Shown here: positions 2,577 to 29,038 of the stretch, in pieces
Layout of the letters: each line of letters opens with the position of its first letter
Numbering within the stretch: position 1 is the stretch's first letter
IMG/VR virus record: IMGVR_UViG_3300018894_000001
Span: 1-64,000 of that record
Source of the DNA: a virus
Reading direction: 5' to 3' (one strand)
Length of the DNA: 64,000 bases
Made by a program: the position numbers and the translations under genes
The notes under the pieces: generated by a model
Database searches by the model: none
The model's input: only the letters and a program-made list of their open reading frames with translations
What the model was told of the DNA's origin: nothing

Positions 2577-3049
2577 GGCTGCCTCCACTTCTTCTCTTCA
2601 AGCATCCGCGCCATGGCTTCGAGCTCTCGCGCGGCGTCACGCTGTTCCGTTTCGTTCAGCCTGCACACCCATACGGTGGACAGGTCGTTGACCTTCTGCG
2701 CCGCATCGCCACACCGGGCGAAACGTCGTTCAAGCGTGGCCGCTTCAGCAGCGGCAGCCCGTAGCGCACCGGCGATGTCCCTGCCGATGGTCGGTGCGTC
2801 CTCGCGCGGCACCGGCAGCGGGCCGCGTCCCATACCAGCAAGTCGATCCAGGACACGGCGGGCATGCGCCCGGCTGAATGCCGCAAGCACCATGAGCCGT
2901 GCCCGGCACCTAGCGTCGCCGACTGCTTCGGCCAATGCGAGGTGACACCGGCCCGCGTACACACTCGCCTCCCACAGCACGGCGAGCTGCGCGGCGAGCG
3001 GGCCATGTCTCGGGCTCTGGCGGCGCTGCGCGTCCTCGGGGCTAATCAC
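2573..3049 (-). CDS. Hypothetical protein
   Basis: ORF in the operon frame with overlapping start and stop codons on both sides. Confidence 0.5.
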   Translation of the reverse strand: MISPEDAQRRQSPRHGPLAAQLAVLWEASVYAGRCHLALAEAVGDARCRARLMVLAAFSRAHARRVLDRLAGMGRGPLPVPREDAPTIGRDIAGALRAAAAEAATLERRFARCGDAAQKVNDLSTVWVCRLNETEQRDAARELEAMARMLEEKKWRQP

Positions 3050-4094
3050 CTGGCACCTCGCGCACGCGGACGTACTCTGGCCACTCGCCTATGTCGCCGC
3101 CCTTCGGGTCGGCCAGGTCCATCGGCACGTCATCAACGCGCGGCGCCATCGACACTCCTCGGATGGTGCGCGTATCGACGGGCTGGGCCCCGAGCTGCTT
3201 CACGAAGCACTTCACGCCAGCTTCGGCGCACTGCTTCACGATGTCGCGGACCCACGCGACGTTGAGCGGGCGAGCCTTGCTGCCCGACTCGCCGCCGACA
3301 ATCACCCACGAGATTGGCCACTCCCACCGCCCGCCCTCGTTTGGGATGCGAGGGTCCGGATGCTGGAGATGATCGCCGCCGTTCGTGTGAAGCACAGGCT
3401 TGAGCCACCGAGACAGGTCCACCGGCCCCACCAGAGGCTCAACGGACAGGAAGCGGCGCCGGAAGCCCTTCGCCGCGAGCAGGCGAGGGGCCCACTCGTC
3501 CGCCGTCTTCTGGTCGCTGACGGACGTGCCCAACCACACCAGCGGCCGGACGTCCTCGGGCGCCAGGGCCCAGTTCTCCGGGCGCTTCGTGAGGAGGAGC
3601 CAGTCCAGGCCGGGCGCCTGGGGCATCGCGAGCGTGCCGCCCTCGCGCTCCAGGTCGTCGTCCGGCAGCGACACTGGCATGCGCGTCGTTTGTCGAATGG
3701 TGTCCCAGAGCCGCGCGCGGGCTGCGTCGAGCGCCCGCCGCGCTACGAGAACAAGCTCCCAGCGCAGCTCTTCCTCCAGCGAGCCCCCGGACTCCGGTGG
3801 TGCGTGTGGCACTTCCAGTACGTCAGCCAGCGAGGCGCAGAACACGCGCCGCCGCTCTCCCGCGCGGGCCGCCTCTCTGGCCCACTTCAGCGGCTCCTTC
3901 CACCCGCTGTCCGCCTTCACGACACGCTGGCCGCCCTGCCACACCTCGCCCCACTGGATCTTTCCGCCAGGGCGCATGGCTACTGGGAGGGCGTGCTCGG
4001 CGTAGCACGAGGTACAGCCCGTATGGACCTTGGAACAACCCATCCAGGGGTTGAACGTGTGGTGCGCCCATTGAATCTTCGTCTGCTCTCCCAT
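3042..4094 (-). CDS. Phage Gp37/Gp68-family protein (DUF5131-like)
   Basis: N-terminus IQWAHHTFNPWMGCSKVHTGCTSCYAE, plus WLLLTKRP and VIVGGESG signatures typical of this family. Confidence 0.8.
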   Translation of the reverse strand: MGEQTKIQWAHHTFNPWMGCSKVHTGCTSCYAEHALPVAMRPGGKIQWGEVWQGGQRVVKADSGWKEPLKWAREAARAGERRRVFCASLADVLEVPHAPPESGGSLEEELRWELVLVARRALDAARARLWDTIRQTTRMPVSLPDDDLEREGGTLAMPQAPGLDWLLLTKRPENWALAPEDVRPLVWLGTSVSDQKTADEWAPRLLAAKGFRRRFLSVEPLVGPVDLSRWLKPVLHTNGGDHLQHPDPRIPNEGGRWEWPISWVIVGGESGSKARPLNVAWVRDIVKQCAEAGVKCFVKQLGAQPVDTRTIRGVSMAPRVDDVPMDLADPKGGDIGEWPEYVRVREVPGD

Positions 4095-4118
4095 GTCCGC
4101 GTCCCTTCGTCCTGCGTG

Positions 4119-4508: not shown

Positions 4509-4801
4509 GGACGCCTCCCGGCGGCGCGCTGCGCACCGCCCGTCTCGCTGTTGCAGCGCTCGCAGGCCGGGCGGATGTTGTGCCGGACGTAGCGCCCGCC
4601 CTGGCAACCGGGCGTGACACGGTCCACGGTGACGGTGGTTGCGTCGAGCAGGCGCCCGCACCGGTAGCAGCGGCACGTCCCCGGGCCCTTGTTGGACTCG
4701 TAGGCCTTCACGAGGTACGCCCTGCGGCGGGCGCGGTCTGCGCTGTTGCCGCGGGCGTTGCGGTTGGTGGTGCCGCGAGCGGGGCGACTCACGGGTGGCA
4801 C
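4505..4801 (-). CDS. HNH endonuclease (small)
   Basis: CxxC ... DRVTPG..GG.Y...NIRPAC.RCN pattern. Confidence 0.7.
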   Translation of the reverse strand: MPPVSRPARGTTNRNARGNSADRARRRAYLVKAYESNKGPGTCRCYRCGRLLDATTVTVDRVTPGCQGGRYVRHNIRPACERCNSETGGAQRAAGRRP

Positions 4802-5564: not shown

Positions 5565-7196
5565 CTATTGGAGCACGACTCCGCCAGCGGTCTTCGGAGC
5601 CTCTTCCGTGTCGCTGGGCTCCTCGGCCGCGTCGCTCGGCGGAGAGTCCGAGGCCTTCTGCTGTTGCTCCGCCGCAGCACGGCGGACCGGTGGCGGCACG
5701 TACGCCGTGCACGCGCACGTCTCACCTGGGCGTCCGTCGAACTCAACGCGGATGCTGGCCATGCACTGGCCGCTAGAGCCGGAGTGGTCCGCCTCCGAGT
5801 GGCCGCACCTGGCGCGCTGGCAGCGGTGCTTCACCGGGGCCTGCACCGTCATGTCGCTGGTGGCGTCGGGCGTGGCCTTCCGGCGCTGCTCCTCAGGCTC
5901 CAGGTCCAGCACCTGGGTAGTCGTCACGGACAGGGAAAGCTCCGACGCGGGTGGTGGGCGCTTCTTCCGGGCTCGAGGCGCTGGCTCCTCATCGTCTTCT
6001 TCTTCGGTGGGCGCCTCGACGCGCGGGCGAGAGTGGAACGGCGCGCTGCTGTCGTCCTCGGCGTAGACGCGGTACGACTGGTCGGCTAGGTCCATGGCCC
6101 GCGAGTCCACGACCTCGTAAGTGTCCGTGCGGACGCGCCACACCGCGCGCAGCGGGTACACCACCACCTCCAGCGTCCGAACGTCGCGAAACTCCTTCCG
6201 GGACTGGATTTCAGCAACGAGCTTCGCGCGGCGCACGTCCACCTCTTCGCGCTTGCGCTTCATCTGGTCCTTGAAGGCCTTCTCCTCCAGGTCCAGCTCG
6301 CCCTCCTCCTCGTAGGTGGCCGTGAGCAGGTCGTCTTTCCGGAGCCGTGCCTCGTGCGTCAGCGGCACCGGCAGCGATTCAACCGCCTCGGAAATCTTGC
6401 CGCCCTCCCCGAAGATGTGAGCCGTCTGCATCCAGCGCCGGAGCAGGTCCCCCTTTCGCTCCTCTGACGGCACGTCGGCGATGCGGGGGCGCTCCTCGGC
6501 AGCCCGTGGCGGTGGCTGGTCGGCCGCACCCTGGGATTCAGCGGTGAGCGCCTCCAGCGCGAGCCCCAGTGCTTCCTCGACATGGTCGTGATCATCCGCG
6601 GGGGCCGTGTCGGGGCTGCCGCATCGGCACGTGTCAGCGTCAGCAAGCAGCATTCCACCTTCGGCATCGAATCGATAGGGGCCGTGCGAGACGATGCTGC
6701 CCAGGCTTGCCACCTCCAAAGCCAGCGTGGCCCCTTCCGGGGAAATGCTCTCCACGTGGACCGTCCAGACCATCAGCGGCCCCTCGGAGACGTCCAGCGC
6801 GTACTCGCCGACCTCGAGCTGCTCGAAGGCCGGCAGCAGCATCCGGAACTCGGGGGCCTTCTCCCCTTGCCCAGGTTCTGCGAGCGGCGCCTGCGGTAGC
6901 CCCTGACCCTTCAACGCGGCGCAGGCGTACGCCTCCAGAGCCTCCAGGACGACCTGCGGCACCTCCTTGTAACTCCCGTCCGCCGCCTGGCTGGCGGCCA
7001 ACACCAGCGACTTGGCGCGCAACGTATCCGCGGCCACGAGCGTCTCGCCCTTCCGCATGTGCCACGGGCCCCAGTTCTTCCCCGTGCTCTCCTGCTCCAG
7101 CCGCACTCCTCCCTTGTCGTCCAGCGCCCCGCGCCAGTCCGCCAGTACTCCTTCGCCGAGCTTCGTCCACTGCAACGACGCCTTCGTCTTCGTCAT
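5565..7196 (-). CDS. Large acidic hypothetical protein with a C-terminal Cys/His cluster
   Basis: Trimmed to ATG 7196 (MTKTKASLQW). Protein-like composition across 543 aa. Confidence 0.55.
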   Translation of the reverse strand: MTKTKASLQWTKLGEGVLADWRGALDDKGGVRLEQESTGKNWGPWHMRKGETLVAADTLRAKSLVLAASQAADGSYKEVPQVVLEALEAYACAALKGQGLPQAPLAEPGQGEKAPEFRMLLPAFEQLEVGEYALDVSEGPLMVWTVHVESISPEGATLALEVASLGSIVSHGPYRFDAEGGMLLADADTCRCGSPDTAPADDHDHVEEALGLALEALTAESQGAADQPPPRAAEERPRIADVPSEERKGDLLRRWMQTAHIFGEGGKISEAVESLPVPLTHEARLRKDDLLTATYEEEGELDLEEKAFKDQMKRKREEVDVRRAKLVAEIQSRKEFRDVRTLEVVVYPLRAVWRVRTDTYEVVDSRAMDLADQSYRVYAEDDSSAPFHSRPRVEAPTEEEDDEEPAPRARKKRPPPASELSLSVTTTQVLDLEPEEQRRKATPDATSDMTVQAPVKHRCQRARCGHSEADHSGSSGQCMASIRVEFDGRPGETCACTAYVPPPVRRAAAEQQQKASDSPPSDAAEEPSDTEEAPKTAGGVVLQ

Positions 7197-7397
7197 GGTG
7201 CGTCCCTCCGGAAAGACACGGAGCCCGGCGGCAGGGGGAACGCCGTCCAGGCTCCGCGGGCGCGGTGCTGCTGGCGCCGTGTGAAAGACCCCGCCCATGC
7301 AGGCACGGGGCGCCACCTCCCACGAGGTGGCAGGCGGCGAGCGGTGGTGCTGGTGGAAGCCAGCCCGGCGAATGCCGGCGCCCGCACGCCCACAGGT

Positions 7398-7741: not shown

Positions 7742-8971
7742 TCAGCCCTCGCTCCCCGGCTCGCGCGTCGTCTGCTGGGCCTGCTTCGCGCGTTCGCGGC
7801 GACTCACCTCCGCCTCAACGTCGGCCATGCAACGCGTCAGCGCGGTGAACCAGGGCTGCTTCGGAGCCCCTGGGGACTGCGCATGCTCCGCGCCCTGGTC
7901 GTGGACGGCCGAGAGTTCATGGTCGCTCAGAGAGGAGATTTCCCGACCCTTGAGCTTGCCGAAGGTGACCTCCGGCTCGCGAAGTGGCGTGGCCATCTTC
8001 TCCATCAGCCACTTCGCCAGCGCCGTCTGCGTTGCGCGCAATTGGGGGGCGTTGTGCACCGGCTTGTCGCTGCCCAACTCTGCCCTCATTGCGTCCACGC
8101 ACTCGCGGACCTGCTCAACGGTGGCCTCGCCCAGGCGCAGCCCGCTCCACTTCCCGTAGCCGATGAAATCGCCACCGTTCGCCACCAGCGCCGAGGCATG
8201 GTCGGCAGGTATCGGCGCGCTGTAGCCGAGAGCGCTATGGGGACCGGCTGGGCGCGCCTCCCGTGTCGCCTGAACGGGCTGCACTGCTCCATCGGTCAGC
8301 CACGCCCGGAGCGTCTCCCCGAGCTTCTCCCCTGGCTCCGCTATGACGGCTTTGGCGAGTTCAGGGCAACGCGTCTTGGTGACGACCAACTCGGCGCCGT
8401 CGAGGTCGGCGACGACATCAAACTCGTACTCCAGCCCGTCGCGCTGGACTGGCGCAAGCCCCACCTTCCTCGGCGTCTTCTTGCCGTTGACCTCTTCAAC
8501 CACGTACTCGGTCTTCACGCGCAGCGTCACGATGACGTGAAGCCGGGCCCGAAGGATGGCGTCCACCATGGCGTTGTGCTCCGGCGTCACCGAACGCCAC
8601 GCGTCGAAGCTGTTCCTGGACTTCGACTGCTTCGCCGCTGCATCCACCATTTCGAGCGCACCACCCTTGCCCATCCATGCGTGCGACAGGCTGTCGATGA
8701 TGAGGACGTCGTATCCCGCTGCCTCCGCCTCCTGAATCACGCGGATGTAATCGCGTGGGGAGAACGTCTCCAGGTTGTCTGCGTCGAAGTCGAAGCGGTC
8801 CGCGTACTTGCTGGCGCTGCCTCGCTCCGAGTCGGCCAGGGCGATGCGCCCTGTCGCGCCCGCGAGTCCTCGAGCTATGCGCAGCGCGGAGAACGTCTTG
8901 CCGCTGCCAGACGGGCCAATGAGCGCGACACGCGCCCGCGCTGCTCTCTTGGTGGCTTTCTGAAACGCCAT
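7742..8971 (-). CDS. Sak4-like / AAA_24-type phage recombination ATPase with a C-terminal extension
   Basis: Walker A motif GPSGSGKT and Walker B-like VLIIDSLSHAW. N-terminal ~230 aa fit the phage nucleotide-binding protein pattern. Confidence 0.8.
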   Translation of the reverse strand: MAFQKATKRAARARVALIGPSGSGKTFSALRIARGLAGATGRIALADSERGSASKYADRFDFDADNLETFSPRDYIRVIQEAEAAGYDVLIIDSLSHAWMGKGGALEMVDAAAKQSKSRNSFDAWRSVTPEHNAMVDAILRARLHVIVTLRVKTEYVVEEVNGKKTPRKVGLAPVQRDGLEYEFDVVADLDGAELVVTKTRCPELAKAVIAEPGEKLGETLRAWLTDGAVQPVQATREARPAGPHSALGYSAPIPADHASALVANGGDFIGYGKWSGLRLGEATVEQVRECVDAMRAELGSDKPVHNAPQLRATQTALAKWLMEKMATPLREPEVTFGKLKGREISSLSDHELSAVHDQGAEHAQSPGAPKQPWFTALTRCMADVEAEVSRRERAKQAQQTTREPGSEG

Positions 8972-8983
8972 GTGCTGTCCCCT

Positions 8984-11896: not shown

Positions 11897-12795
11897 TGTG
11901 CCTCCAGCACTATGTCTGTTACGGGCGATGTCGCGACCACACTCAGAAGGGACTCGTGGAGATAAACGCGCTCTGTTCGGCGCCCGCGAGTGCCGTTGCC
12001 ACTTAGCTTGGCGCCAGAGCCGGCGGCTAGAATGCAGACGAAATCATGGGGAGCAGAGTATTCGGACGCAACGACTACGTTACGGCGACTGGCAGATCGC
12101 ACCCAGTCCCAGAAAGCCGACGTATCAAACCTGCCTTGATACTCTGTCGTCCCAAGATAGGGTGGGTCCGCGTAAATGAGCGCGCCCTGCCAATCCCCTT
12201 CTCGGTAGTCGCAACATGACAGGCTTACATCGCGACACTTCGCCATTGTGTTCAATAGAGACTTCCGAGCCACTCTCGCGAAGTAGTGGCGCGCTTTTTC
12301 GGGAGGGGATAGGCCTGCGGCGGCAGCCTCGTCAGAAGACAGGAGGGTGCGCGAGTACCCATCTTGGGCCCGCCCCACCCAGCGCTTAATGTCCACAGAA
12401 TTATATCCCCACCGGAACGACACAGAACCGTCCGGCCGCATCTCCTTCCCCCAGTGGTTGGAGTCGCGGCGGGCATACCCGCCGAACCACTTTCCACCAA
12501 ACGAACATCCGAACCCCGCGAACGCAGTCATCGGGTCGTCCGGGTCTCGTGTATCGGATAGGCGCGCGTATTCGGCTTCCGCAAGAGATTCCGGAGGAGC
12601 CCAGCCACCCTGCACAGCACGCAGCAAACAAATAAGGGGGCGGCTGATGTCATTTGCGTAGCGTTCTCCACTCATTGCCGACGTCACCGATAAGGTGCCG
12701 CAGAAGAGGTCCACAAATGGACGACCACTCCGGATGGACTCAAGCAACGCGGAAAGTGGTCGGGCGATTTGTCTCTTGCTCCCCATGTATTGCAT
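11893..12795 (-). CDS. N6-adenine DNA methyltransferase, D12 (Dam) class
   Basis: YMGSKRQIA, DLFCGTLSV and ADPPY motifs. The gene sits in visibly lower-GC DNA. Confidence 0.8.
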   Translation of the reverse strand: MQYMGSKRQIARPLSALLESIRSGRPFVDLFCGTLSVTSAMSGERYANDISRPLICLLRAVQGGWAPPESLAEAEYARLSDTRDPDDPMTAFAGFGCSFGGKWFGGYARRDSNHWGKEMRPDGSVSFRWGYNSVDIKRWVGRAQDGYSRTLLSSDEAAAAGLSPPEKARHYFARVARKSLLNTMAKCRDVSLSCCDYREGDWQGALIYADPPYLGTTEYQGRFDTSAFWDWVRSASRRNVVVASEYSAPHDFVCILAAGSGAKLSGNGTRGRRTERVYLHESLLSVVATSPVTDIVLEAQ

Positions 12796-12796
12796 A

Positions 12797-13948
12797 TCAG
12801 TCCTGTCCGTGTTTTGTTGTTTTGCAGTACGGGCACGTAATCCGCAAATTGCCAAATGCAGATTCGCCATAGCCCTTGCCCCAGCACGCCCAGCACCATC
12901 GATTCACCACGCCCTTCGCGGCCTCGTAGGCGGCGGCCATGCGCTCGAAGTCAAGGGCCGTAACGCCAACGCTGTCCCCTTGAAACTCGGCCCGGTATAC
13001 CTCGCCGCTGATGCGCGCGCTCATGGGCGGCGTGAAGCGCAGCAGCATCCGCCCCACAGCGGCGAACGGCCCCACCGCCTCCAGCAGCCCGGCCGGGGCG
13101 GTGGGCGTGGCGGGCCTCGACCTCAAAGTCGCGAGTGCGAGCGCCATCTCAGCAGCGGTGTGTGCGTCGTCGCGCGCAACCATGCGCTGGCCGTGCACCG
13201 TGGCCTCCAGTTCCGCCACGCGCCGCTCGGCGGCCTCTCGCTCGGCAGCGAGCCTCCGCACGAACTCCGGGAAAATCTCCGAGTCCTTGGCGCCCAGTTC
13301 CTTCCGAAGCGCGTCGTTCCCGTCGAATTCCGCCTGGAGGTCGCGCTTGTAGGCGTCGCGCTCCGCCTCGGCGGCCTCGGCGCGGGACTTCTCGGCCAGC
13401 CAAACGTCGTTCAGGAGCTTGTTGGCCTTGGCGCATCGCTCGTTCTCGGCCTCCAGCGTTGCGACCTGGGCGCGGAGATTGGGAAGGTACGTTGCCATGC
13501 GCTGCCGAAGCTCTTGCACCTCCCTCAGGAACGCGGCGGCCTCCTGCCGGGCGGCGTCGCGCTCGGACTCGGCCTGTTCGGCGCGGTTCTCCATGCCGCG
13601 AACCAGGGCGGAGACCTTGCAGCGCTCTTCCATCTCGCTGTCGCGTTCGCGGGTGCGCTGCGCCAACTCCGCCTCCAGCGCCCTCCCCTGCACGGCCCAG
13701 GCGTGGAGCCGGGCGAGGGCGGCGTCTTCCGGCATGCGCACGTCCTCTGGCCAGTTTTTGAGCGCGGCACTCAGGGGCGCAAAATCCCGCGCCACCTCCT
13801 CCGAGGTGGGGGGCGTCAAGGTCGCAATGTGCGCCAGTGCCCGTTCCAAGCCGCGCGCAAGGTCCGTGAAGGTCGGGCTCGTCTTGCCTGCCGCCATCCG
13901 TCGAAGCTCTGCCAGTTCGTCCGCAGTCAGCCGCGTCCCTTCGGCCAT
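12797..13948 (-). CDS. Coiled-coil protein, paralog 1 of 3, with a C-terminal CxxC..CxxC cluster
   Basis: Shares LRAQVATLEAENERCAKANKLLN(D/E)VWLAEKSRAEAAE with the 24813-25907 product. Long heptad-like E/R/A-rich stretches. Confidence 0.6.
   Translation of the reverse strand: MAEGTRLTADELAELRRMAAGKTSPTFTDLARGLERALAHIATLTPPTSEEVARDFAPLSAALKNWPEDVRMPEDAALARLHAWAVQGRALEAELAQRTRERDSEMEERCKVSALVRGMENRAEQAESERDAARQEAAAFLREVQELRQRMATYLPNLRAQVATLEAENERCAKANKLLNDVWLAEKSRAEAAEAERDAYKRDLQAEFDGNDALRKELGAKDSEIFPEFVRRLAAEREAAERRVAELEATVHGQRMVARDDAHTAAEMALALATLRSRPATPTAPAGLLEAVGPFAAVGRMLLRFTPPMSARISGEVYRAEFQGDSVGVTALDFERMAAAYEAAKGVVNRWCWACWGKGYGESAFGNLRITCPYCKTTKHGQD
13367..13477. repeat. 111-bp inverted repeat, partner at 25137-25247 (110 of 111 identical)
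   Basis: Direct comparison of the reverse complement; the single mismatch is at 13406. Confidence 0.85.
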
Positions 13949-14457: not shown

Positions 14458-15002
14458 GCGCACCCCACTGCGACTGGTGCGCGTGTCCGTTCCGCGCGGT
14501 CCTCCTGCAGGTGACGCGGGCGGGGGCCCGTCCGGCTGTCATCTCCCGGCACTACGGGCTGCACCTGTCCACCGTCTCCACCGTCCTCCAGTCAGCTCGG
14601 AAACTCGGCTGCTTGCCGGCCCCGGCCTGCACCTTCTGCCCCAGGACGGTCAACGTGCTCGGTGGCATCTGCGGCGCTTCGGAGTGCAGGCGCGCGTATG
14701 AGCGCGAGTGCAAGCGCCTCAACCGCGCGCGCTACGGCCGGGGTTCGGCTCCTGGGGCCGGACGTCCCCGCTACATCGAGCCAGAGGGCTTCGTCTGGCC
14801 GGTGCTTCCCGAGAACCAGCGACGGCAGACGGGCCGGGTTACGCCTGTCGTCATCCGTGCGCCGCCCATCCTCTACCCGGCGTTCCTGCGCGGAGAGGGC
14901 AACCGCTACCCGATGCAGGCCCCGAGGAACCCCTTGACTGCCCCGCCACTGGCACCAACGCTGTGCAGCACCTGGGATGCGAGGTGGCGCCGTGCAGCGT
15001 GA
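14454..15002 (+). CDS. Hypothetical Cys-rich protein with a possible HTH
   Basis: ATGA coupling to the RHH gene. ISRHYGLHLSTVSTVLQSARK is HTH-like. Confidence 0.45.
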   Translation: MSAPHCDWCACPFRAVLLQVTRAGARPAVISRHYGLHLSTVSTVLQSARKLGCLPAPACTFCPRTVNVLGGICGASECRRAYERECKRLNRARYGRGSAPGAGRPRYIEPEGFVWPVLPENQRRQTGRVTPVVIRAPPILYPAFLRGEGNRYPMQAPRNPLTAPPLAPTLCSTWDARWRRAA

Positions 15003-15960
15003 GCCGCCGCGCCCCTACTACGAGGAGCCGCGCGCCAAGCTCTACGTTGGCGACTGCCTAGATGTGCTCGCGACCCTGCCGGACCGCGCGGCTCGGACCT
15101 GCGTCTCCTCCCCGCCGTACTGGGGGCTCCGTGACTACGGCGTTGCGGGCCAGATCGGCAACGAGCCTACACCAGAGGAGTTCGTCGCCAAGCTCGTGGC
15201 CGTGTTCCGCGAGGTGCGGCGCGTGCTGGCCGATGATGGAACGCTCTGGCTCAACCTGGGCGACTCCTACGCGGGTGCGGCTGGCGGATGTCAGGGGAAG
15301 AACGGCCAGCGTGCGTCTCGGGCATTCACTGCCAAGGTGCAGTCTAAGGCCGGAGAAGGGCTCAAGCCGAAGGACTTGGTAGGCATCCCGTGGATGACCG
15401 CCTTCGCGCTCCGTGCGGACGGCTGGTTCCTTCGCTCAGACGTCATCTGGCACAAGCCCAACCCGATGCCCGAGAGCGTCACGGACAGGCCGACGAAGGC
15501 ACATGAGTACGTCTTTCTCCTCACGACGTCAGCGCGCTACTTCTACGATTCGGCCGCCATTCGCGAGCCTGACAGCGGGCTTCCTTCTGGCAACGGCTTT
15601 ACCGGCCGGCAAGGTGGTTCCGAGCGTGTTGGCCACCTCAGCGGCGGCCCAGGCACATCTGAGCGATGGCAGCCAGGGAAGGGACGCAACGCCCGCACCG
15701 TGTGGAGCATCGCCACTCAGCCCAGCGGCGTGGAGCACTTCGCGCCGATGCCGCCCGAGCTGGCGCGAAGGTGCATCCTCGCAGGCAGCGCGCCCGGTGA
15801 CACGGTGTTGGACCCCTTCAGCGGCGCCGGCACAACGGGCATGGTGGCCATGCAGAACGGCCGCCGATACGTGGGGGTGGAACTCAACCCCGAGTACGCG
15901 GGCGAGACGGTGACGCGCTGGAACCGGGAATGCGCCCAGCTCGGCATTTTCGCCGGCTGA
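14977..15960 (+). CDS. N4/N6 DNA methyltransferase (N6_N4_Mtase, beta class)
   Basis: SSPPYW, VIWHKPNPMPES and DPFSGAGTT motifs. The start is uncertain (alternative GTG at 14992). Confidence 0.85.
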   Translation: MRGGAVQREPPRPYYEEPRAKLYVGDCLDVLATLPDRAARTCVSSPPYWGLRDYGVAGQIGNEPTPEEFVAKLVAVFREVRRVLADDGTLWLNLGDSYAGAAGGCQGKNGQRASRAFTAKVQSKAGEGLKPKDLVGIPWMTAFALRADGWFLRSDVIWHKPNPMPESVTDRPTKAHEYVFLLTTSARYFYDSAAIREPDSGLPSGNGFTGRQGGSERVGHLSGGPGTSERWQPGKGRNARTVWSIATQPSGVEHFAPMPPELARRCILAGSAPGDTVLDPFSGAGTTGMVAMQNGRRYVGVELNPEYAGETVTRWNRECAQLGIFAG

Positions 15961-18147: not shown

Positions 18148-18411
18148 TCACATAGGGTTGGGCCGGATGCGATCCTGCGGGCGGCTACTTGGGGCGTTGG
18201 CTGGCTGGGATGTCGCTACCATCCCACCAACCCTCTGCGTGTCCGAAACAGACTCTGATGCGCCGCCACCACCTGCCCAAGAAAAAAAGGCCCCTTCTTC
18301 TTCCTTGTCGCAGATTTGAGGAAGCGTCACGGCTCCGACGCCTCCCCACTTGGAATACTGCTCTTCACATCCTTCATCCGAATTATCACTACAGATGAAA
18401 CACGTTCCCAT
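18148..18411 (-). CDS. Small acidic Cys-containing protein in a low-GC patch
   Basis: GGAGAC upstream of the ATG. Sits downstream of the 54-aa ORF, and local GC is visibly lower. Confidence 0.35.
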   Translation of the reverse strand: MGTCFICSDNSDEGCEEQYSKWGGVGAVTLPQICDKEEEGAFFSWAGGGGASESVSDTQRVGGMVATSQPANAPSSRPQDRIRPNPM

Positions 18412-18476
18412 GGTGTCTCCAGCGGTGGCCCGAATCTCGAGCGGGTGGTGCCCCGGTGAGGCCCGGGGCGTGGGTG

Positions 18477-21214: not shown

Positions 21215-21397
21215 CGCGGGTGGGTCATTTGAGTCTTCTTGACGGCGCCACAGACTGCGCGCATTGTCGCAAGCAGGTGCTGCCCAGGACCGCGACCCGG
21301 GGCAGTGCAATCCCTACCCTGTATTGCCACCTTCACGGGTGGTAGTCGGCTCCCTCGGGTGCTGTCGCGGCCCCGAGGTGAGCCGGCGCTTTCTCCC

Positions 21398-21865
21398 ATG
21401 ACACAACCAGCGAACGCGCACGCCGCTGAGCCGCGAATCCGAGCTCTCACCCTGTGGCGTCCCTGGGGCTGGGCCATCTTCCACGGAGGCAAGGACGTGG
21501 AAAACCGGGGCCTGCGATTCCCGGCACCGCCGGTGGGTTCCTGGCTGGCCATCCACAACGGGAAGACGTGGGACGAGGAAAACGCCGAGGCCATGGAGGA
21601 CGAGTTCGGCCTGACGGTGCCGCCGGAAGACGAGCACCCGGCCGGCGTCATCATTGGCGTGGCCCGGGTAGAGGCCGTAACGCGCGGGACACCTCTTCGC
21701 CCGAGCCGCTGGTACATGGGCGAGACAGGGTTGTGGCTCGCCGAGGCGACGCCCATTGCGCCGGTGCCCGTCCGTGGCGCTCAAGGGCTATGGCCTCTTC
21801 CTCCGGATGTTCTGGCAAAGGTGCGCGAGGGTTGGGCCGCAGCCCGGAAGGCGGTGACGCCGTGA
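21398..21865 (+). CDS. ASCH-domain protein
   Basis: N-terminus IRALTLWRPWGWAIFHGGKDVENRG is typical of ASCH/PUA-like proteins. Confidence 0.65.
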   Translation: MTQPANAHAAEPRIRALTLWRPWGWAIFHGGKDVENRGLRFPAPPVGSWLAIHNGKTWDEENAEAMEDEFGLTVPPEDEHPAGVIIGVARVEAVTRGTPLRPSRWYMGETGLWLAEATPIAPVPVRGAQGLWPLPPDVLAKVREGWAAARKAVTP

Positions 21866-22170
21866 ACGCGCACGCCCACGCCGCCCGGAAGCACGCGAAG
21901 CGCCGCGCTGTGTCGCGCTTCGGCGCACGCCTCAACCGCCACCACCTGCGCGAGCTTGTAGAATCCATCCGCCAGGGCCGGGCGCGCTTCCTCTGGCGCG
22001 AGTCACGCACCCGGTGCTGCTTCCTGGTTGCCGTGAACGGGAAGCCCGCGGTAGCCGTCTACTCGTCCCAGAGCGGGGTGATTCACACGTTCCTGACTCT
22101 GGAAATCGCTAGGCGCAAGCTGACGCCGCTCGGCGTCTTCGTGCCCGAGGAGGTTGCACCATGCGCGTGA
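21862..22170 (+). CDS. Hypothetical protein
   Basis: GTGA overlap with the ASCH gene stop. Confidence 0.45.
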   Translation: MNAHAHAARKHAKRRAVSRFGARLNRHHLRELVESIRQGRARFLWRESRTRCCFLVAVNGKPAVAVYSSQSGVIHTFLTLEIARRKLTPLGVFVPEEVAPCA

Positions 22171-22700
22171 TGTTTTTCGGCTCCCGATCGCTGACGTGGC
22201 GGCATCTCCCGGTGCTGCGCGCACTCGCGCTGCATGCATCCCTCGACTTGGCGCAGTACGACGCAGGGCACTCAGTGCCGCACATGGACCTCGACCTGAT
22301 GCGCCTGTTGATGGCCGGCGGCGATGACGAGTGGCCAGCCCTGCCGGAGTCCGAGCCCTTGATCCTCCTGCATGGCGACGGCCCGCCAGGGAAGGTTCCC
22401 GGGGCCATCGGCGCCGACAAGCTCGCGGAACTCGCGTGCATGGAGGGGTGGCCAGAGCGTCGCAGGCTGAAGCGCTTCCCCGTCGAGCAGCATGCGGGCG
22501 AGACGTGGGGCCAGGCCGCGGCGCGCCGGAATGCGGCCATGGTGGCAGCGCGCCCTCACCGCGCATATGCGATTCACACCGACCTCGACGCATCAAAGGG
22601 CAGTTCGATGACGGCCAGCTTCCTCACCTCGGCGGGGATTCCGTACTGGTACGTCCGGGTGCGCCAGTCCGGAGAGCTGGTGTCCGTGGAGCAGCGGTAG
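22161..22700 (+). CDS. SLOG / DUF2493-like protein
   Basis: Pattern MRVMFFGSR...ILLHGDG..GAD..A...A...G......W....AA.RN..M resembles DUF2493. Confidence 0.55.
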   Translation: MRVMFFGSRSLTWRHLPVLRALALHASLDLAQYDAGHSVPHMDLDLMRLLMAGGDDEWPALPESEPLILLHGDGPPGKVPGAIGADKLAELACMEGWPERRRLKRFPVEQHAGETWGQAAARRNAAMVAARPHRAYAIHTDLDASKGSSMTASFLTSAGIPYWYVRVRQSGELVSVEQR

Positions 22701-22815
22701 AACGCCATGTTGACGGGCGGGCATGCCGCCAGTACCTTCACGCAGTTCCCGCTGGTGTCTTGCACCATCAGCGGTGTTGAATCCCTTCAAGTGCCTGGGC
22801 TCACGCCTTTGGCTG

Positions 22816-22853
22816 CCCCGGACCCACGCGTGTGCAAGCGCGTGGGTCCGGGG
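22816..22853 (+). promoter_or_regulatory. Perfect 15-bp stem, 8-nt loop hairpin upstream of the replication-organiser gene
   Basis: CCCCGGACCCACGCG-tgtgcaag-CGCGTGGGTCCGGGG, followed by AGTCCTTTCC. Could be a terminator, attenuator or operator. Confidence 0.4.
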
Positions 22854-22864
22854 AGTCCTTTCCG

Positions 22865-23797
22865 ATGGCCCCTTGCCTCCCAGTGCAGCAGCAGGACGCG
22901 CCGCCCGCGGATGCTCCCGGTGCCGGGCTTGCGGCATCCGAGCTGGAACTGCTCCGGGCCGAGATCGCTGAGGAGCGGGCCGCACGTCTCGTGGCGGAAG
23001 GTGTGGCCGAAGGCTACCGGCGCGCGCTGGCGCAGCTGCTCGCGGCGCTCCCCGTCGGGACTGTGCCCCCCTCCGCTGTCCCCATGTCCCCTGGGGACAT
23101 GTCCCCATGTCCCCAGGGACATTCGGGGACATTCGGGGACATGAAGGGGGGTAGGGGGGTAGCAGCAACAGCGACGACGAAGTCGGAGCTGTTGAGAGAG
23201 AAAGAAAGACTCAAGAAGCAAAGACAGAGAGCACTTCAAAAAGCTGCTGCTGAAGCCGCGCGAGGAGTGTCCCCTATTGTCCCCAGGGGACAAGGGGACA
23301 TGTCCCCTGTCCCTGTTCCAGTTGAGGCCTCGACCGTCACATCCAGTCCGCCAGCAGTTCGCCGCGCGCGCCCGGCCTGGATGGAAGACTCCCCGCCGGG
23401 CCCGGAGGTGGCCTTCTTCGCCGCCTGCCAGGAGGCGCGCCGTCAGGTCTTCCCCCAGGCGCTGCCGGAGTCCCCGCCCCCGACATGGGCCTCCTGGTAC
23501 CGAGAAGCCCTCGCCGTAGTCGGCGGCGATGAAGCCCGGCTGAAGGCGGCCTGGGGCGCCTACCTGAGCGATGACTGGGCCCGCAAGTGCAAGCCGGTGT
23601 GCCCCGCAAAGGCCTTCTGCGCGCCGGAGGTGTGGCGGCGGCACGTACCAGGGCAGGACGTTCTCGCCCCAGGCGCCCCGAGGACCAGCTCGCCCCACCG
23701 AAGGGGCAGCCGGACGGACACGAGCATGAGTGACTGGAGCAGTTTGCCCGAGGGGGGGATTGACCTCTCGGCGCCCGAAGAAGGGACGACGACATGA
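22865..23797 (+). CDS. Putative replication initiator or replisome organiser (contains iterons)
   Basis: Translationally coupled (ATGA) to the DnaC-like loader gene. Iteron clusters and an AT-rich tract lie inside the gene, as in lambda O. No recognisable domain by eye. Confidence 0.45.
   Translation: MAPCLPVQQQDAPPADAPGAGLAASELELLRAEIAEERAARLVAEGVAEGYRRALAQLLAALPVGTVPPSAVPMSPGDMSPCPQGHSGTFGDMKGGRGVAATATTKSELLREKERLKKQRQRALQKAAAEAARGVSPIVPRGQGDMSPVPVPVEASTVTSSPPAVRRARPAWMEDSPPGPEVAFFAACQEARRQVFPQALPESPPPTWASWYREALAVVGGDEARLKAAWGAYLSDDWARKCKPVCPAKAFCAPEVWRRHVPGQDVLAPGAPRTSSPHRRGSRTDTSMSDWSSLPEGGIDLSAPEEGTTT
23077..23314. repeat. Iteron array: 14 copies of TGTCCCC/GGGGACA in two clusters flanking an AT/purine-rich tract
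   Basis: Cluster 1 at 23077-23142 has 8 copies and includes the palindrome GGGGACATGTCCCC. Cluster 2 at 23268-23314 has 6 copies. The spacer at 23196-23243 is GAGAGAGAAAGAAAGACTCAAGAAGCAAAGACAGAGAGCACTTCAAAAAG. Confidence 0.6.
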
Positions 23798-24777
23798 GGA
23801 CGGAGCGAGTCGAGGCAGAGAACGGCAGCCCCGAAGAGCACCCGATGCGCAAGGTGCTGGGCTGGCTGCGCAACGGCGGGGGGCGAGCGTGGCGCGAGGA
23901 GCGCCAGCGCCTGGAGCGCGAGGGCCGGGAGATCGTGCTGTGTCCCCCGGACTGCTCCGCGAAGCTGCGGGCGGACACGCCGCACGCCCATACGTGGTGG
24001 GATATGTGGACCATGCGCGGCATGGCCGAGTATGAGTGCGAACTCCGGCGCGCGCTGGCCGAGAGCCAGACGGCGAAGCCTGACATCATGGGCAAGCTCG
24101 CCGCCGCGGGGGTGGGGCGGACGCACCTGGACAGGCTCCGGGAGAAGATGGACGAGCGCGCCAGCTTCCGCGCCGCGCGCAGGTGGTGGGACCAGCCACG
24201 TCCCATGATTTCGCCGGACCAGTACGGCAACCCGGCCCGACGCGGGCCCATGTCCTTCCCCTGGTTGCTGCTGCTGGGGGCCACAGACTCCGGGAAGACT
24301 CAGGCCGCCGCGTGGTGCCTGCAGCAGCACTTCCGCGCGTGGCCCTGGAACGGTCAGGCCAGCGGCCCCCGACAGCCCCCGCCGGGGCTCTTCTTCACCG
24401 CCGCCGAACTGCTCACCCTTCACGCCGCAGGCAGCGACGGCATCCAGGGGCGCGACAGGCTGGATGACCTGCGGAGAACGCCCCTGCTCGTTGTGGATGA
24501 CCTGGGCGCCACGCCCCTCACGGAGTACGCGCTCGGCTTGCTGTACGACATCCTCGATACACGGTACCGCGAGCGCCGCCGGACGGTGCTGACCGCCAAC
24601 CTATCGCCGCGGGACTTCGAGCAGCGCTTCGACCTGCGCGGTGGGCAGCGGGACGGCGCTTCCAACGAGGGACGCCTGTATCGGCGGGCCTCCGAGCACG
24701 GATACATGGCGCACCTCACGAAGACGGGCGGGAAGCTCTTCGTCGGCGGACGCGAGCAGACGGCGAAGGCAACCTGA
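23794..24777 (+). CDS. DnaC/IstB-like AAA+ helicase loader
   Basis: Walker A GATDSGKT, Walker B LLVVDDLG and sensor-like TVLTANLS. Confidence 0.7.
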   Translation: MRTERVEAENGSPEEHPMRKVLGWLRNGGGRAWREERQRLEREGREIVLCPPDCSAKLRADTPHAHTWWDMWTMRGMAEYECELRRALAESQTAKPDIMGKLAAAGVGRTHLDRLREKMDERASFRAARRWWDQPRPMISPDQYGNPARRGPMSFPWLLLLGATDSGKTQAAAWCLQQHFRAWPWNGQASGPRQPPPGLFFTAAELLTLHAAGSDGIQGRDRLDDLRRTPLLVVDDLGATPLTEYALGLLYDILDTRYRERRRTVLTANLSPRDFEQRFDLRGGQRDGASNEGRLYRRASEHGYMAHLTKTGGKLFVGGREQTAKAT

Positions 24778-24812
24778 GCGGCGGACACAGCACAACCAGA
24801 AGGGACGGAAGC

Positions 24813-25907
24813 ATGAGCACGAATGCGATTCACGAGGCGCTGGCGGAGCTGGAGAGGCACTCCAGCACGGACTGCAACAGCAGCGCGCACGCCAGCGACG
24901 TGGTGAAGATTCTGGAGGCGGCGCGCGCTGGGCTCGCAGCGCTGGAGGCCGACGACGCAGCGCTGCTGGCTGCGCTGTGGACATTGCAGCACGTTGAGTC
25001 CAGGAATCCGGAAGAGGGCATGTCCTACTGCCCTGCCTGTGGCGAGTGCGAAACCGGCCACACACAGGACTGCGAGTTGGCCGCCATCCTGTCCGACCCC
25101 CACCCGGGCGCCGCGCTGCTGGAAGAACTGCGCACCCTCCGCGCCCAGGTCGCAACGCTGGAGGCCGAGAACGAGCGATGCGCCAAGGCCAACAAGCTCC
25201 TGAACGAGGTTTGGCTGGCCGAGAAGTCCCGCGCCGAGGCCGCCGAGCGGCGCGTGGCGGAGTTGGAGGCGGAGGTGCTCAGCTTGGAAGAGGCACTGAA
25301 GGAGGAACACCTCAAGGCCGAGGGAGCCTATGCGCGCGGTCTCGTGGCCCACGTGGCGGAGGAGCCCGCCACGCACCCCGAGCACGCCCCGGCCGGTCCA
25401 CCCCAGGCGCTGCGCCTAGCGGCCCTGGCACTGGCCCTGAAGGTGGTGGAAGAGGAGCGCGCGAAGTGGGGTGGGGCTGTCCACACGGCCTGCGACGCCA
25501 TCTCCGGGCGGCTCCGCTACCTCTCGCAGTACCACTTCCCGCCCGCCCCGGCCGGGCTGCTGGATGCGGTGGGCATGGCGCTGGAGGCGTACGAAGGGCT
25601 TGACGCGGCGACGTGCCTTGAGGAGTTGCAAGCCGCCAAGAAGGCAACGCCGCCAACCATGTCCCGCCTCCGCTCCGTCTACGAGGCCGCGAAGGGCGGG
25701 GCCACGGACCGGCTCCAGCGCCTGGAGACGTTCGCCGAGCACTTCGCGGGGCTTGTTGACGCCGCCGTGGCCCACCAGCAGTGGAAGGCGGATGGCTCGA
25801 AGGGGATGCAGGTCCCGTTTCACGACGACTTCGCCAACGCCCCTCCATCCGTCATTGGCTCTCTGCGCCGGCTCGCGCGAGACGCCCGGGAGGCGCTGAA
25901 GCCATGA
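24813..25907 (+). CDS. Coiled-coil protein, paralog 2 of 3
   Basis: Contains HPGAALLEELRTLRAQVATLEAENERCAKANKLLNEVWLAEKSRAEAAE and a CPACGEC cluster. Confidence 0.6.
   Translation: MSTNAIHEALAELERHSSTDCNSSAHASDVVKILEAARAGLAALEADDAALLAALWTLQHVESRNPEEGMSYCPACGECETGHTQDCELAAILSDPHPGAALLEELRTLRAQVATLEAENERCAKANKLLNEVWLAEKSRAEAAERRVAELEAEVLSLEEALKEEHLKAEGAYARGLVAHVAEEPATHPEHAPAGPPQALRLAALALALKVVEEERAKWGGAVHTACDAISGRLRYLSQYHFPPAPAGLLDAVGMALEAYEGLDAATCLEELQAAKKATPPTMSRLRSVYEAAKGGATDRLQRLETFAEHFAGLVDAAVAHQQWKADGSKGMQVPFHDDFANAPPSVIGSLRRLARDAREALKP
25137..25247. repeat. 111-bp inverted repeat, partner of 13367-13477
   Basis: The reverse complement matches 13367-13477 with one mismatch. Confidence 0.85.
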
Positions 25908-26116
25908 GCGCATGTCTGGTGTGCGGGGCAGATGCCCCCGGCGGCCCGATAGTGGGCATCAAGCAGCGGCACCTGTGCGACGAGCATCGGACAGCCTGGG
26001 CGGCATCTGGGGAGGCCAAGCGCGCCTTTGCGTCAGCTAGCACCCGGGCGGCGCGGCTGGCCTTCATGGACTGGCTGACCCGGGTCCGCGCCGAACGGCG
26101 GAACGCGGCGACGTAG
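25904..26116 (+). CDS. Small hypothetical protein
   Basis: ATGA overlap with the upstream stop. Confidence 0.45.
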   Translation: MSACLVCGADAPGGPIVGIKQRHLCDEHRTAWAASGEAKRAFASASTRAARLAFMDWLTRVRAERRNAAT

Positions 26117-26147: not shown

Positions 26148-26921
26148 ATGATGCGAACGCAGGACACCCAGGAGGGACACGTGACGCCTTTCTTCGAATC
26201 GCCGCAGCAGGTGGACGGCAAGCCGCAGGTCGTCATCTACAACGCCCGCTGGGAGGACGTGTGGCCCACGCTCGGGCTCCAGCCCAAGGACGTGGACCTG
26301 TGCTGGGCGGACCCGCCGTATGGGGTGAAGGAACGAACGAAGCGAAACAGCGCGGGGCGCGGAATCGGAGAAAAGCGGATTCATGCCAGCAGGCGGGCCC
26401 GGGACTGGAGTGAGTTGGTTGGAGATGATCGAAAATTTGACCCCATGCCGCTGTTGGAATTTCCGCGCTTGGTCACATGGGGTGCGAACCACTACGCGCG
26501 ACAACTCCCGTTGTCCTCGTCATGGTGGTGGGACAAAAGAGAGGGGACGACGCCTGACGACAACGCAGACGGCGAGCTGGCGTGGACGAACCTGGGAGGG
26601 CCCGCGCGCCAGTTTTCGCACCTCTGGAGGGGGCTGTGTCAGGCATCGGAGAAGATGGGTGGCGGTGAACGTATCCACCCCACTCAGAAACCCGTTGCCC
26701 TGTGCGAGTGGGGCTTCCAACGCGCGGGGCTCAAACCCGGCCAGCTCGTCTTCGCTCCGTACTTGGGCAGCGGTCCCGAGGTGCGGGCCGCGATCAACAT
26801 GGGTCTGCGCATCATCGGCTGCGAGGTGGACGCGGACTACTGCCGGACGGTGGTGGCCCACCGCGTCGCGCTCGCGGCGCCCCGCAGGGGGCAGGAGGGT
26901 CAGGTGCTGCTACCGCTCTGA
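26148..26921 (+). CDS. DNA methyltransferase (N6_N4_Mtase-like, DPPY type)
   Basis: WADPPYG, IHPTQKPVAL and FAPYLGSG motifs. Confidence 0.8.
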   Translation: MMRTQDTQEGHVTPFFESPQQVDGKPQVVIYNARWEDVWPTLGLQPKDVDLCWADPPYGVKERTKRNSAGRGIGEKRIHASRRARDWSELVGDDRKFDPMPLLEFPRLVTWGANHYARQLPLSSSWWWDKREGTTPDDNADGELAWTNLGGPARQFSHLWRGLCQASEKMGGGERIHPTQKPVALCEWGFQRAGLKPGQLVFAPYLGSGPEVRAAINMGLRIIGCEVDADYCRTVVAHRVALAAPRRGQEGQVLLPL

Positions 26922-28054: not shown

Positions 28055-29038
28055 TCACGTCGCGGTTCGCCACCGAGTCCCGCCCAGATGAACAAGGACT
28101 GCTTCTGAGGTCGGGTTGATGCCTCGAACGCTGATGTTCCCACTCGCAAAAACCACCATCAGGGCCACGTAGAAGCTCGTTCCTTCTTGAATCACGACCG
28201 GGAATGACTGGTTGTAAAGGGCCAAGTAGATGTTTGTCGGTCCCGATACTGGCAGTTGGCTCACTTGGTACAGCGCTGTTGGAGAGGCACTGGTCAGCGA
28301 GCCGGCGGCAAGGCTCACTGTTCCAAGCAGTCCTGCATACCCAGTGATATCCCTATACAGCCAGCTGTCGGTTCCAAGGTTGGATGCAAAGATTCCGCTC
28401 CAGCCCATGAGCAACTCGGCATAGCGGACCGTGTTGCTCATGGTCGCCACGTTGTCCGCCGTGAACCCGAGCACCTGCCCCTTGGTTCCGGAGCCTGGGA
28501 TGAACACACCGGTGGTGAATGCTCCATCGGCAAACGGGGTGGTGTTGGGCGCCGTGTACGTCTTCACGGTGAGCCCTGAAGAACTCAACTGGAACCAGAG
28601 CGACGCCACGTTGGGCGTATCGGCAACCCAGCCGCTCCCGTCCCAGGCCGCGTTGATGGTGATGATGACGCTGTTGGTTGAGGTGGTGATGAAGCGGCAG
28701 GCCATGCCACTCGTGAGCGTCAGCTTCATGCCCAGCGAGCGCGCGGCCGTCGCGAGCTTGTAGAAGAACCCGGGAGCGGCTTCGGTCCCCTGGAAATCCG
28801 CCGTAATACTGCTGTTCGCTGCGAAGCCGCCGACGAACGTCTGGATGGCCGTCCACGAGCTGGCGAGGTTGAGGAACCCCGCCTTCTTCCGGATGCGCTG
28901 AAGCTGGTCGATGAGCGGCTGGAAGGTGGTGTTGAACGTGGACGCGTTGCCCGGGTCGTTGTCAACGGGGATGGGCAGAATGAGGTCGCTTCGGTCGTCG
29001 TTCACGCCTACTTCTGTTCCGGGATAGTTGGTGGGCAC
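28055..29038 (-). CDS. Tail fibre / receptor-binding protein
   Basis: N-terminal PVDNDPGNASTFNTTFQPLIDQLQRIRKK and ...WTAIQTF resemble conserved tail-fibre N-termini. S/T/G/N-rich, lower GC, and distal to the baseplate genes. Confidence 0.6.
   Translation of the reverse strand: MPTNYPGTEVGVNDDRSDLILPIPVDNDPGNASTFNTTFQPLIDQLQRIRKKAGFLNLASSWTAIQTFVGGFAANSSITADFQGTEAAPGFFYKLATAARSLGMKLTLTSGMACRFITTSTNSVIITINAAWDGSGWVADTPNVASLWFQLSSSGLTVKTYTAPNTTPFADGAFTTGVFIPGSGTKGQVLGFTADNVATMSNTVRYAELLMGWSGIFASNLGTDSWLYRDITGYAGLLGTVSLAAGSLTSASPTALYQVSQLPVSGPTNIYLALYNQSFPVVIQEGTSFYVALMVVFASGNISVRGINPTSEAVLVHLGGTRWRTAT

Follow-up and report, generated by a model that had tools for sequence, protein, structure and literature searches.

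A putative replication origin embedded in a candidate replisome-organiser gene of an Mx4-like myxophage or prophage

Introduction

In phage lambda the origin of replication sits midway along gene O, ahead of gene P, and contains iterons and an AT-rich tract; in lambdoid and Stx phages the number of iterons alters the length of the encoded protein linker (PMC7466680). The oriL of the Bacillus phage SPP1 is within gene 38 and has AB boxes bound by the organiser G38P and an adjacent DNA-unwinding element (DUE), with the gene for the loader G39P downstream (PMC5737612). Here we describe a region with a related organization in IMG/VR virus record IMGVR_UViG_3300018894_000001, of which positions 1 to 64,000 were analysed (this 64-kb stretch is referred to as the window). 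The region, at 23077-23314, is inside an open reading frame (ORF) at 22865-23797, and we regard it as probably the vegetative, theta-type origin of an Mx4-like myophage or prophage, embedded in what would be its own replisome-organiser gene. A preliminary description of the window had proposed iterons beside an unwinding element within a gene, and this interpretation is supported at the comparative, in silico level, with the layout being kept in relatives.

The locus is similar to lambda in that the candidate origin is inside the predicted initiator gene and the next gene encodes a helicase loader or recruiter; the comparison with an ori in O, upstream of P, that was drawn in the preliminary description is an apt one (PMC7466680). 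As in the lambdoid phages, origin and initiator are swapped as a module between relatives (here in locus L009; see below). The differences lie in the repeats, as lambda has four iterons and Stx phages have six, all on one side of the AT tract (PMC7466680), whereas the window has 14 units of 7-9 bp (12-18 in relatives) that are closely packed, in both orientations and on both sides of the core. They also lie in the proteins, since the ORF product has no Pfam similarity to lambda O (there is no match to Phage_rep_O for the ORF at E<=0.01, nor for the ORF and nine homologues at E<=1) and the loader is DnaC/IstB-like and not P-like. Lambda iterons are about 19 bp long, and those of plasmids are typically direct repeats of about 17-22 bp located outside the rep gene. 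The plasmid iteron origins (RepA/Rep_3, as in pPS10, F and R6K) share with the window the short repeats, an AT-rich DUE and a nearby initiator gene, but neither Rep_3 nor any other plasmid Rep domain was found in the window ORF using Pfam.

The likeness to SPP1 is that repeats and a putative DUE are located inside the candidate organiser gene with a loader gene downstream, and some members of the protein family described below match the PHROG 'replisome organizer'. In contrast to SPP1, the window protein itself matches no replisome-organiser or replication-initiation family, the iterons are on both sides of the putative DUE, and no phage helicase gene was recognised among the window ORFs scanned. 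What is new relative to these systems is the use of many very short bidirectional iterons on both sides of the putative DUE (a bipartite arrangement), a protein without a recognisable origin-binding domain, conserved G6N2G6 and (GCT)3 boxes, and iteron words that vary on a constant scaffold.

Organization of the repeat array

The word TGTCCCC and its complement GGGGACA occur as 20 exact copies on the two strands of the window, compared with 11.1±2.9 expected from shuffles, and 12 of these 20 are within 23077-23307. Allowing one mismatch adds two further copies (AGGGACA at 23115 and TGTCCCT at 23308), for a total of 14 within the 238 bp of 23077-23314, and these form two clusters with a copy of the same 14-bp palindrome in each (Table 1). 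The start-to-start distance is 7-10 bp, and each frame of the ORF and either orientation is represented among the copies. When every 7-, 8- and 9-mer in the 64 kb is scored for clustering within 300 bp, this word comes out well ahead of the rest, and is thus clustered far beyond chance as expected for an iteron-type origin; all seven of the window copies of CATGTCCCC are inside the array. The number of copies, the two clusters and the palindrome agree in position with what had been noticed previously, with the refinement that 12 copies are exact and two have one mismatch.

The two clusters flank a 108 bp centre that is purine-rich and low in GC, a tract that was also mentioned in the preliminary description and is confirmed here by its composition and codon usage. 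Positions 23184-23250 have a GC content of 0.46 and a purine fraction of 0.70, and the 60 bp from 23183 have a GC of 0.417, which is the second lowest in the 64 kb. With a GC of 0.417-0.54 next to the iterons, compared with 0.68 for the window, the centre is a predicted DUE. Its GC at third codon positions (GC3) is 0.476, compared with 0.864 in 18 phage genes; AGA accounts for four of the six Arg codons in the centre compared with 1% in the background, and the codons AAA, GAA, CAA, TTG, GCA and GCT are over-used. Iteron arrays are not present in other AT-rich regions of the window. The other lowest-GC stretches (12623-12870, 18186-18440 and 28088-28400; GC 0.49-0.56), which have no iteron-like arrays, are probably intergenic promoter regions where gene orientation switches.

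The ORF peptide was re-encoded 20,000 times in a simulation with the phage's own codon usage. The simulated sequences contain 2.05±1.22 exact iterons (maximum 7) where 12 are observed (P<5e-5), and the GC of the centre is 0.712±0.018 (minimum 0.635) compared with the observed 0.540. The simulation, together with the GC3 drop and the rare codons, shows that synonymous sites are constrained both for the word and for an AT-rich centre.

The centre is bordered by a G-box and by two short arms forming an AGCAGCA/TGCTGCT inverted repeat (Table 1). We considered whether this repeat forms an RNA or DNA hairpin, and rejected it because the sequence is invariant with no compensatory changes, and the fold z-score is -1.78.

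Table 1. Features of the candidate origin region, with window coordinates unless another record is given.
Feature	Position	Strand	Details
Host gene, candidate replisome organiser/initiator	22865-23797	+	310 aa, open; homologues P0001-P0009
Predicted coiled-coil helix	aa 24-60		5' part of ORF
Predicted disordered linker	aa 61-102		encoded by left iteron cluster
Predicted K/R/E-rich helix	aa 103-132		encoded by AT-rich centre
Predicted disordered linker	aa 133-170		encoded by right iteron cluster
Left iteron cluster	23077-23141	both	8 copies, 7 exact and 1 with one mismatch; (C/A)ATGTCCCC-type units
Left-cluster copies	23077+, 23085+, 23093-, 23100+, 23108+, 23115-, 23125-, 23135-		
14-bp palindrome GGGGACATGTCCCC	23093-23106 and 23294-23307		one per cluster
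G-box GGGGGGTAGGGGGG	23146-23159	+	kept as G6-N(1-2)-G6 in all alleles, with any iteron type
Inverted-repeat left arm AGCAGCA	23161-23167	+	from rare Ala codon GCA; repeat brackets AT-rich core
Purine-rich low-GC core, candidate DUE	23168-23242	+	top-strand purine 0.70-0.72; translates as K/R/E-rich helix
Inverted-repeat right arm, box GCTGCTGCTG	23243-23252	+	in all alleles; from rare Ala codon GCT
Right iteron cluster	23268-23314	both	6 copies, 5 exact and 1 with one mismatch
Right-cluster copies	23268+, 23278+, 23286-, 23294-, 23301+, 23308+		
Conserved all-helical domain, family hallmark	23402-23650	+	~aa 180-262; compact, pLDDT 98 at aa 180-260
C-terminal tail	23705-23794	+	~aa 281-310; 91% nucleotide identity with L009 allele
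DnaC/IstB-like AAA+ helicase-loader gene	23794-24777	+	ATG overlaps host-gene TGA as ATGA, 23794-23797
Mx4_p24	OK085710.1 11646-12947		annotated 'hypothetical protein'; array ~11,920-12,214

Conservation of the layout in related loci

Nine homologues of the host gene product (P0001-P0009) come from Corallococcus, Pyxidicoccus and metagenomes, and we compared their DNA together with IMG/VR loci and phage Mx4. The order of elements is common to all of them: left iterons; ATGAAG/CTGGAG-GGGGGG-N(1-2)-GGGGGG; AGCAGCA; a purine-rich core; GCTGCTGCTGA; a CGCGCG-type box; and right iterons. Nine loci have 6-9 left and 4-9 right copies with a gap of 125-153 bp between clusters, and their centres, of 93-120 bp, have a GC of 0.53-0.61 (compared with 0.68-0.73 for the locus) and a purine fraction of 0.68-0.81.

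The iteron word itself is variable. TGTCCCC (type A) is present in the window and in L001, L006, L008, L010, L011, L022 and L209, whereas L004 has CGTCCCC mixed with TGTCCCC, L023 and L218 have TGTCCAC, or ATGTCCAC(C) (type C), and L007 (a P. parkwayensis prophage) and gene Mx4_p24 of Mx4 have CGTCACGC (type B). The encoded peptides are fully different between types, being GDMSP-like in some and VT- or RDA-rich in others, while the DNA architecture is constant. Mx4_p24 is a true homologue, with 45% identity over the conserved domain (E 1e-23), and has the G-box, the AT/purine core, the GCTGCTGCTGA box and the two flanking iteron clusters as in the window; it differs in having 14-15 copies of CGTCACGC, and in a C-terminus that is weakly DnaA_N-like, where the window has a tail followed by a DnaC-like gene. 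No origin is annotated in Mx4, and we did not find one described in the literature consulted for Mx4 or related myxophages.

We note that the palindromic iterons contain ACRYGT, as ACATGT in GGGGACATGTCCCC (at both window palindromes) and as ACGCGT in GTGACGCGTCAC (L007 6440-6452 and L012, which is Mx4, 4789-4801). DNA methyltransferase genes occur near the palindromes, with Mx4_p21 (a C5 methylase) being just upstream in Mx4 and N6/N4 methylases being encoded at 14938-15960 and 26148-26921 of the window.

In two distant family members, L025 and L026, arrays of repeats and an AT-rich tract immediately precede the sequence of the conserved domain. In L026, a run of CGTCCA/TGTCCA/TGGACA (YGTCCA) words at 925-1085 is followed directly by three tandem copies of TAACAAGAACAC (1095-1130) with a GC of 0.40 in DNA of ~61% GC, and judged by its sequence L026 is a second and different realisation of iterons and a putative DUE within a gene. 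The L025 repeats are GGACR and TCTGACGTC. A metagenome scan with the G-box pattern gave at least 120 loci, all unrelated, and none among the matches listed has the right-hand box. TGTCCCC pairs elsewhere in L001 and L006 are coincidental, and are within conserved coding sequence (VSPGTLDSGDN).

Several contigs of draft genomes and of IMG/VR terminate within, or directly beside, an iteron array or the G-box (L002 1-30, the starts of L003 and L005, L011 1-90, and the ends of L013 and L021). The arrays appear to break short-read assemblies, possibly due to several related prophages in a genome sharing the same cassette, a point that matters when prophages are annotated in draft genomes of myxobacteria.

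The host gene product and its family

The product of ORF 22865-23797 has no match in Pfam, NCBIfam, PHROG or PDB. An AlphaFold2 model of the protein, built on 76 sequences, predicts two helical segments, two disordered linkers and a compact all-helical domain (Table 1; pLDDT is the predicted local distance difference test), and the array is in the predicted disordered segments between the helices and the conserved domain, i.e. in what would be inter-domain linkers. A profile of the conserved domain includes 168 representative proteins, in which it is typically at amino acids (aa) ~170-270 of proteins of 250-400 aa, and none of the family members has a Pfam match to it. Modelled alone, the domain has a pLDDT of 94.4; using Foldseek there is no PDB match at E<=0.001, and matches in BFVD are weak and to uncharacterised phage proteins (best probability 0.89, TMq 0.68). 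A DnaD or DnaB_2-like identity for the domain was considered but is unsupported by Pfam, NCBIfam, PDB sequences or Foldseek, with BFVD giving weak matches.

In about 20 of the 76 proteins sharing the domain, residues 1-~150 match the PHROGs 'replication initiation protein', 'replisome organizer' or 'DnaD-like helicase loader', and five family members have a DnaA_N-like C-terminus (best E 2.9e-6); the DnaA_N match is weak and below threshold in Mx4_p24 and P0008. The suggestion in the preliminary description that the protein represents a novel initiator family is therefore correct in part. The ORF itself does lack a family match, but its C-terminal domain is common to replication-initiation and replisome-organizer PHROG proteins, and because of this the ORF product is better regarded as an aberrant member of a group of initiators that is itself poorly characterised. 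Its role as an initiator is thus suggested by family and context.

The module following the conserved domain is interchangeable (P0001-P0008 and Mx4_p24; alignment A1 columns 447-550). It is a Cys-rich segment of CxxC type in P0001-4, 6 and 7, a weakly DnaA_N-like domain in P0005, P0008 and Mx4_p24, and a short acidic tail, with a DnaC-like gene coming next, in the window and P0009, which suggests alternative routes of helicase recruitment.

L009 provides an example of exchange at this locus. Its flanks are 82-91% identical to the window (L009 3951-4969 corresponding to 21839-22871, and 5955-7220 to 23705-24969), but there is no nucleotide similarity to window 22872-23704, where L009 has the unrelated allele P0009. 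The N-terminus of P0009 matches phrog_9474 'replication initiation protein' (E 3e-10), and its linker repeats are GGAACCG/CGGTTCC and GCAGACGC; its last 30 residues and the downstream DnaC-like gene match those of the window. The gene body and repeats have been exchanged as a module with the tail and loader gene being kept, and for this reason the C-terminal tail is the likely loader contact. The P0009 repeat set also includes a microsatellite-like (ACGCAG) x4 at L009 5434-5457, encoding TQTQTQTQ, that may vary in length.

A frame plot hinted at minus-strand coding at 22830-23070, which we rejected because the translation is Arg/Gly-rich nonsense and the plus-strand ORF has conserved homologues; the high first-position GC in this 5' part is accounted for by the Ala/Glu/Leu/Arg-rich coiled coil. 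Immediately upstream, at 22816-22853 and ending 11 nt before the ORF ATG, there is a perfect 15-bp stem with an 8-nt loop (CCCCGGACCCACGCG / CGCGTGGGTCCGGGG). The stem is kept in L009 (4914-4951) with two compensatory double changes (ACGCG to GTGCG paired with CGCGT to CGCAC); it has no T-run and the terminator scan made no call there. It could be a terminator or attenuator, a protein-binding element or an RNA-stability element upstream of the putative initiator gene.

Relationship between iteron type and protein variants

The iteron type is independent of all of the protein segments compared outside the cassette. P0007 and P0001 differ in type (B and A, respectively) but have 63% identity in the N-terminal segment; by conserved-domain subtype P0007 is like P0001 and Mx4 is like P0002 and P0005; and the C-terminal modules (Cys-rich, DnaA_N-like, or tail with DnaC) are found in any combination with the types. 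The genes of L007 and L010 have 65-87% nucleotide identity outside nt 300-715 but only 18-57% inside, and since identity drops sharply only there, the iteron-core-iteron cassette has been exchanged as a unit. A YGTC(C/A) core is present in most alleles and is enriched in the linker of nine of 11 loci, although this was noticed post hoc. The neighbouring genes were considered as sources of an iteron reader and rejected, as neither the ~220-aa nor the ~90-aa protein co-varies with iteron type.

Genomic context

The gene directly downstream of the host gene matches IstB/DnaC AAA+ profiles, including Pfam IstB_IS21 (30.8 bits, cut-off 24.1), the PHROG 'DnaC-like helicase loader' (E down to 4.9e-16) and Aquifex DnaC (3ec2; E 7e-4). 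The ATGA overlap and the IstB_IS21 and PHROG matches bear out the translational coupling to a DnaC-like gene noted in the preliminary description.

The element belongs to an Mx4-like myophage or prophage whose host is a member of the Myxococcaceae. The minus strand at 31-55 kb encodes terminase, portal, Mu-F-like head protein, protease, major head, sheath, tape-measure and baseplate proteins, and the portal shares 57% identity with its counterpart in Myxococcus phage Mx4. A nucleotide search of 22000-26000 against a phage collection gave no match, but a protein-level search did reach Mx4. Accessory genes at 211-1203, 1833-2597, 3042-4118, 7742-8983 and 56900-57625 encode a MazG/PRA-PH-like pyrophosphohydrolase, a PP2C phosphatase, a DUF5131 (Gp37/Gp68-like) protein, a Sak4-like AAA_24 recombinase and a lipase-like moron. 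Rfam and tRNA scans gave no match anywhere in the 64 kb.

The product of ORF 21239-21865 (+; ~208 aa) has 33% identity over 145 aa to a conserved ~220-aa protein. Among the other Mx4_p24-type loci with upstream sequence, this protein is encoded 0-1 genes upstream of the predicted initiator gene in Mx4 (Mx4_p22), L001, L004, L006, L007, L008 and L010, and it is probably a member of the replication or early module. Neither this protein nor the ~90-aa neighbour has a Pfam domain.

The cumulative GC skew dips to a local minimum near 22 kb, which would fit an origin but is weak evidence, because the skew is confounded by gene orientation.

Discussion

The most likely explanation of these observations is that 23077-23314 is an origin served by the gene that contains it. 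The product of ORF 22865-23797 would oligomerise on both arrays of 7-9-bp iterons, and the resulting nucleoprotein complex would strain and melt the ~75-108-bp purine-rich core between the G6N2G6 and GCTGCTGCTG boxes. Gene order and module conservation suggest that the C-terminal tail would then recruit the DnaC-like loader encoded by the coupled gene, and that the loader would place the host DnaB helicase on the opened strands. Both iteron binding and origin activity are what we infer from the sequences.

Several observations weigh against this interpretation. The window protein does not have the N-terminal domain that related initiators (PHROGs 9474, 16167, 1408, 2149 and 13246) appear to use for origin binding, and we found no match to any characterised DNA-binding fold using Pfam, NCBIfam, PDB and Foldseek. 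Because iteron type is decoupled from the protein variants, the iterons could be read by some other factor. As for the K/R/E-rich helix, it may be largely a passive translation of the polypurine tract, as purine-only codons give K, R, E and G. Several of the homologous loci have no DnaC-like gene after the host gene, the AGCAGCA/TGCTGCT inverted repeat shows no covariation among alleles, and a promoter and terminator scan of 21800-24200 found nothing, and thus no promoter-like site near the array.

We also considered quite different explanations of the array. That the repeats are a by-product of a low-complexity protein linker (e.g. Ser-Pro motifs) with no role at the DNA level might be suspected from the recurrence of 'GDMSP'-like peptides among homologues and from the predicted disorder of the iteron-encoded region. 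But one DNA word used in three frames and both orientations gives differing peptides, synonymous sites are fixed well beyond the recoding expectation (12 copies against 2.05, P<5e-5), GC3 collapses in the centre, and the L007 and Mx4 peptides are entirely different (VT- and RDA-rich) with the DNA architecture unchanged. This explanation is effectively refuted by the frame usage and the recoding simulation, and we consider it highly improbable. Phage attachment sites are similar to the array in having a ~240-bp size with repeats around an AT-rich centre, and the attP of Mx8 is reported to lie within its int gene, so an attP-type site with arm-type sites around an AT-rich core within a gene has a precedent. 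The host gene is not an integrase, however, the lytic phage Mx4 also has the array, and integrated prophages have an uninterrupted gene with both of its clusters (in large chromosomal contigs of 0.2-13 Mb, including the 13.2-Mb P. parkwayensis chromosome). Because the arrays are not split into attL and attR in prophages where they are flanked by phage genes, an attP is refuted and has practically no likelihood. Some other cis-acting site is also improbable, although not to the same degree, and candidates include a P1-type pac, in which a cleavage region has short repeats on either side, a centromere-like partition site and a dense operator array. In P1 pac and in parC of plasmid R1, too, short repeats form two clusters with a central stretch between them. 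Mx4 is described as a generalised transducer (PMC10720576), and therefore probably packages by a headful mechanism. The large terminase gene, though, is at 53393-54994, ~30 kb from the array, which is in the replication module and not, as in P1, in or beside a terminase (pacA or small terminase) gene, there is no adjacent gene of ParA, ParB or ParM type, and an operator does not require a melted AT- or purine-rich core. Moreover, the array travels with an initiator-type gene, only the gene body and repeats being replaced in L009, and family members carry replication-related domains.

A more closely related alternative is that the region is an origin, but that a separate DNA-binding protein of the phage or host reads the repeats, with the ORF product acting only as an adaptor to the loader. 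The Mx4_p24-type relatives, like the window protein, are without the N-terminal domain of the 'replication initiation protein' PHROG members, iteron type is decoupled from every protein segment outside the cassette, and the conserved domain is without a recognisable DNA-binding fold, all of which would fit such a protein. Nonetheless, no neighbouring gene co-varies with iteron type: for the ~220-aa upstream protein, identity is 46% when the two type-B loci are compared and 53% when type B is compared with type A, and the ~90-aa neighbour is not common to the two type-B loci. The origins of lambda and SPP1 are bound by the protein whose gene surrounds them (PMC7466680, PMC5737612), and a YGTC(C/A) core in most alleles, albeit seen post hoc, fits a common reader within the family protein. 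We therefore consider a separate reader to be unlikely, and favour the interpretation that the origin is embedded in its own replisome-organiser gene. It is also conceivable, though less likely than not, that origin and specificity determinant make up one portable ~400-bp cassette, read either by its own peptide or by the conserved domain. One possibility is that the cassette-encoded GGRG motif and K/R-rich helix read the flanking iterons, and a second is that the conserved C-terminal domain reads the shared YGTC core by means of an unknown fold. If the cassette peptide is the reader, then the DNA would encode the reader of its own flanking sites, and specificity could be switched in a single recombination event.

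No replication origin or initiator has been described for myxophages, including Mx4, which has been a genetic tool for decades, and the proposal made here provides candidates for both in a whole group of phages and prophages related to Mx4 whose hosts are Myxococcus, Corallococcus and Pyxidicoccus. In 2011, pMF1 was described as the only autonomously replicating plasmid identified in myxobacteria (PMC3235114), and as there are few autonomously replicating myxobacterial vectors, the ~2-kb unit of origin, organiser and loader could seed new replicons. The series of iteron words TGTCCCC, CGTCCCC, TGTCCAC and CGTCACGC on a conserved scaffold also represents a system for studying how origin specificity evolves, a question that is sharpened by the lack of a known origin-binding domain in the protein.

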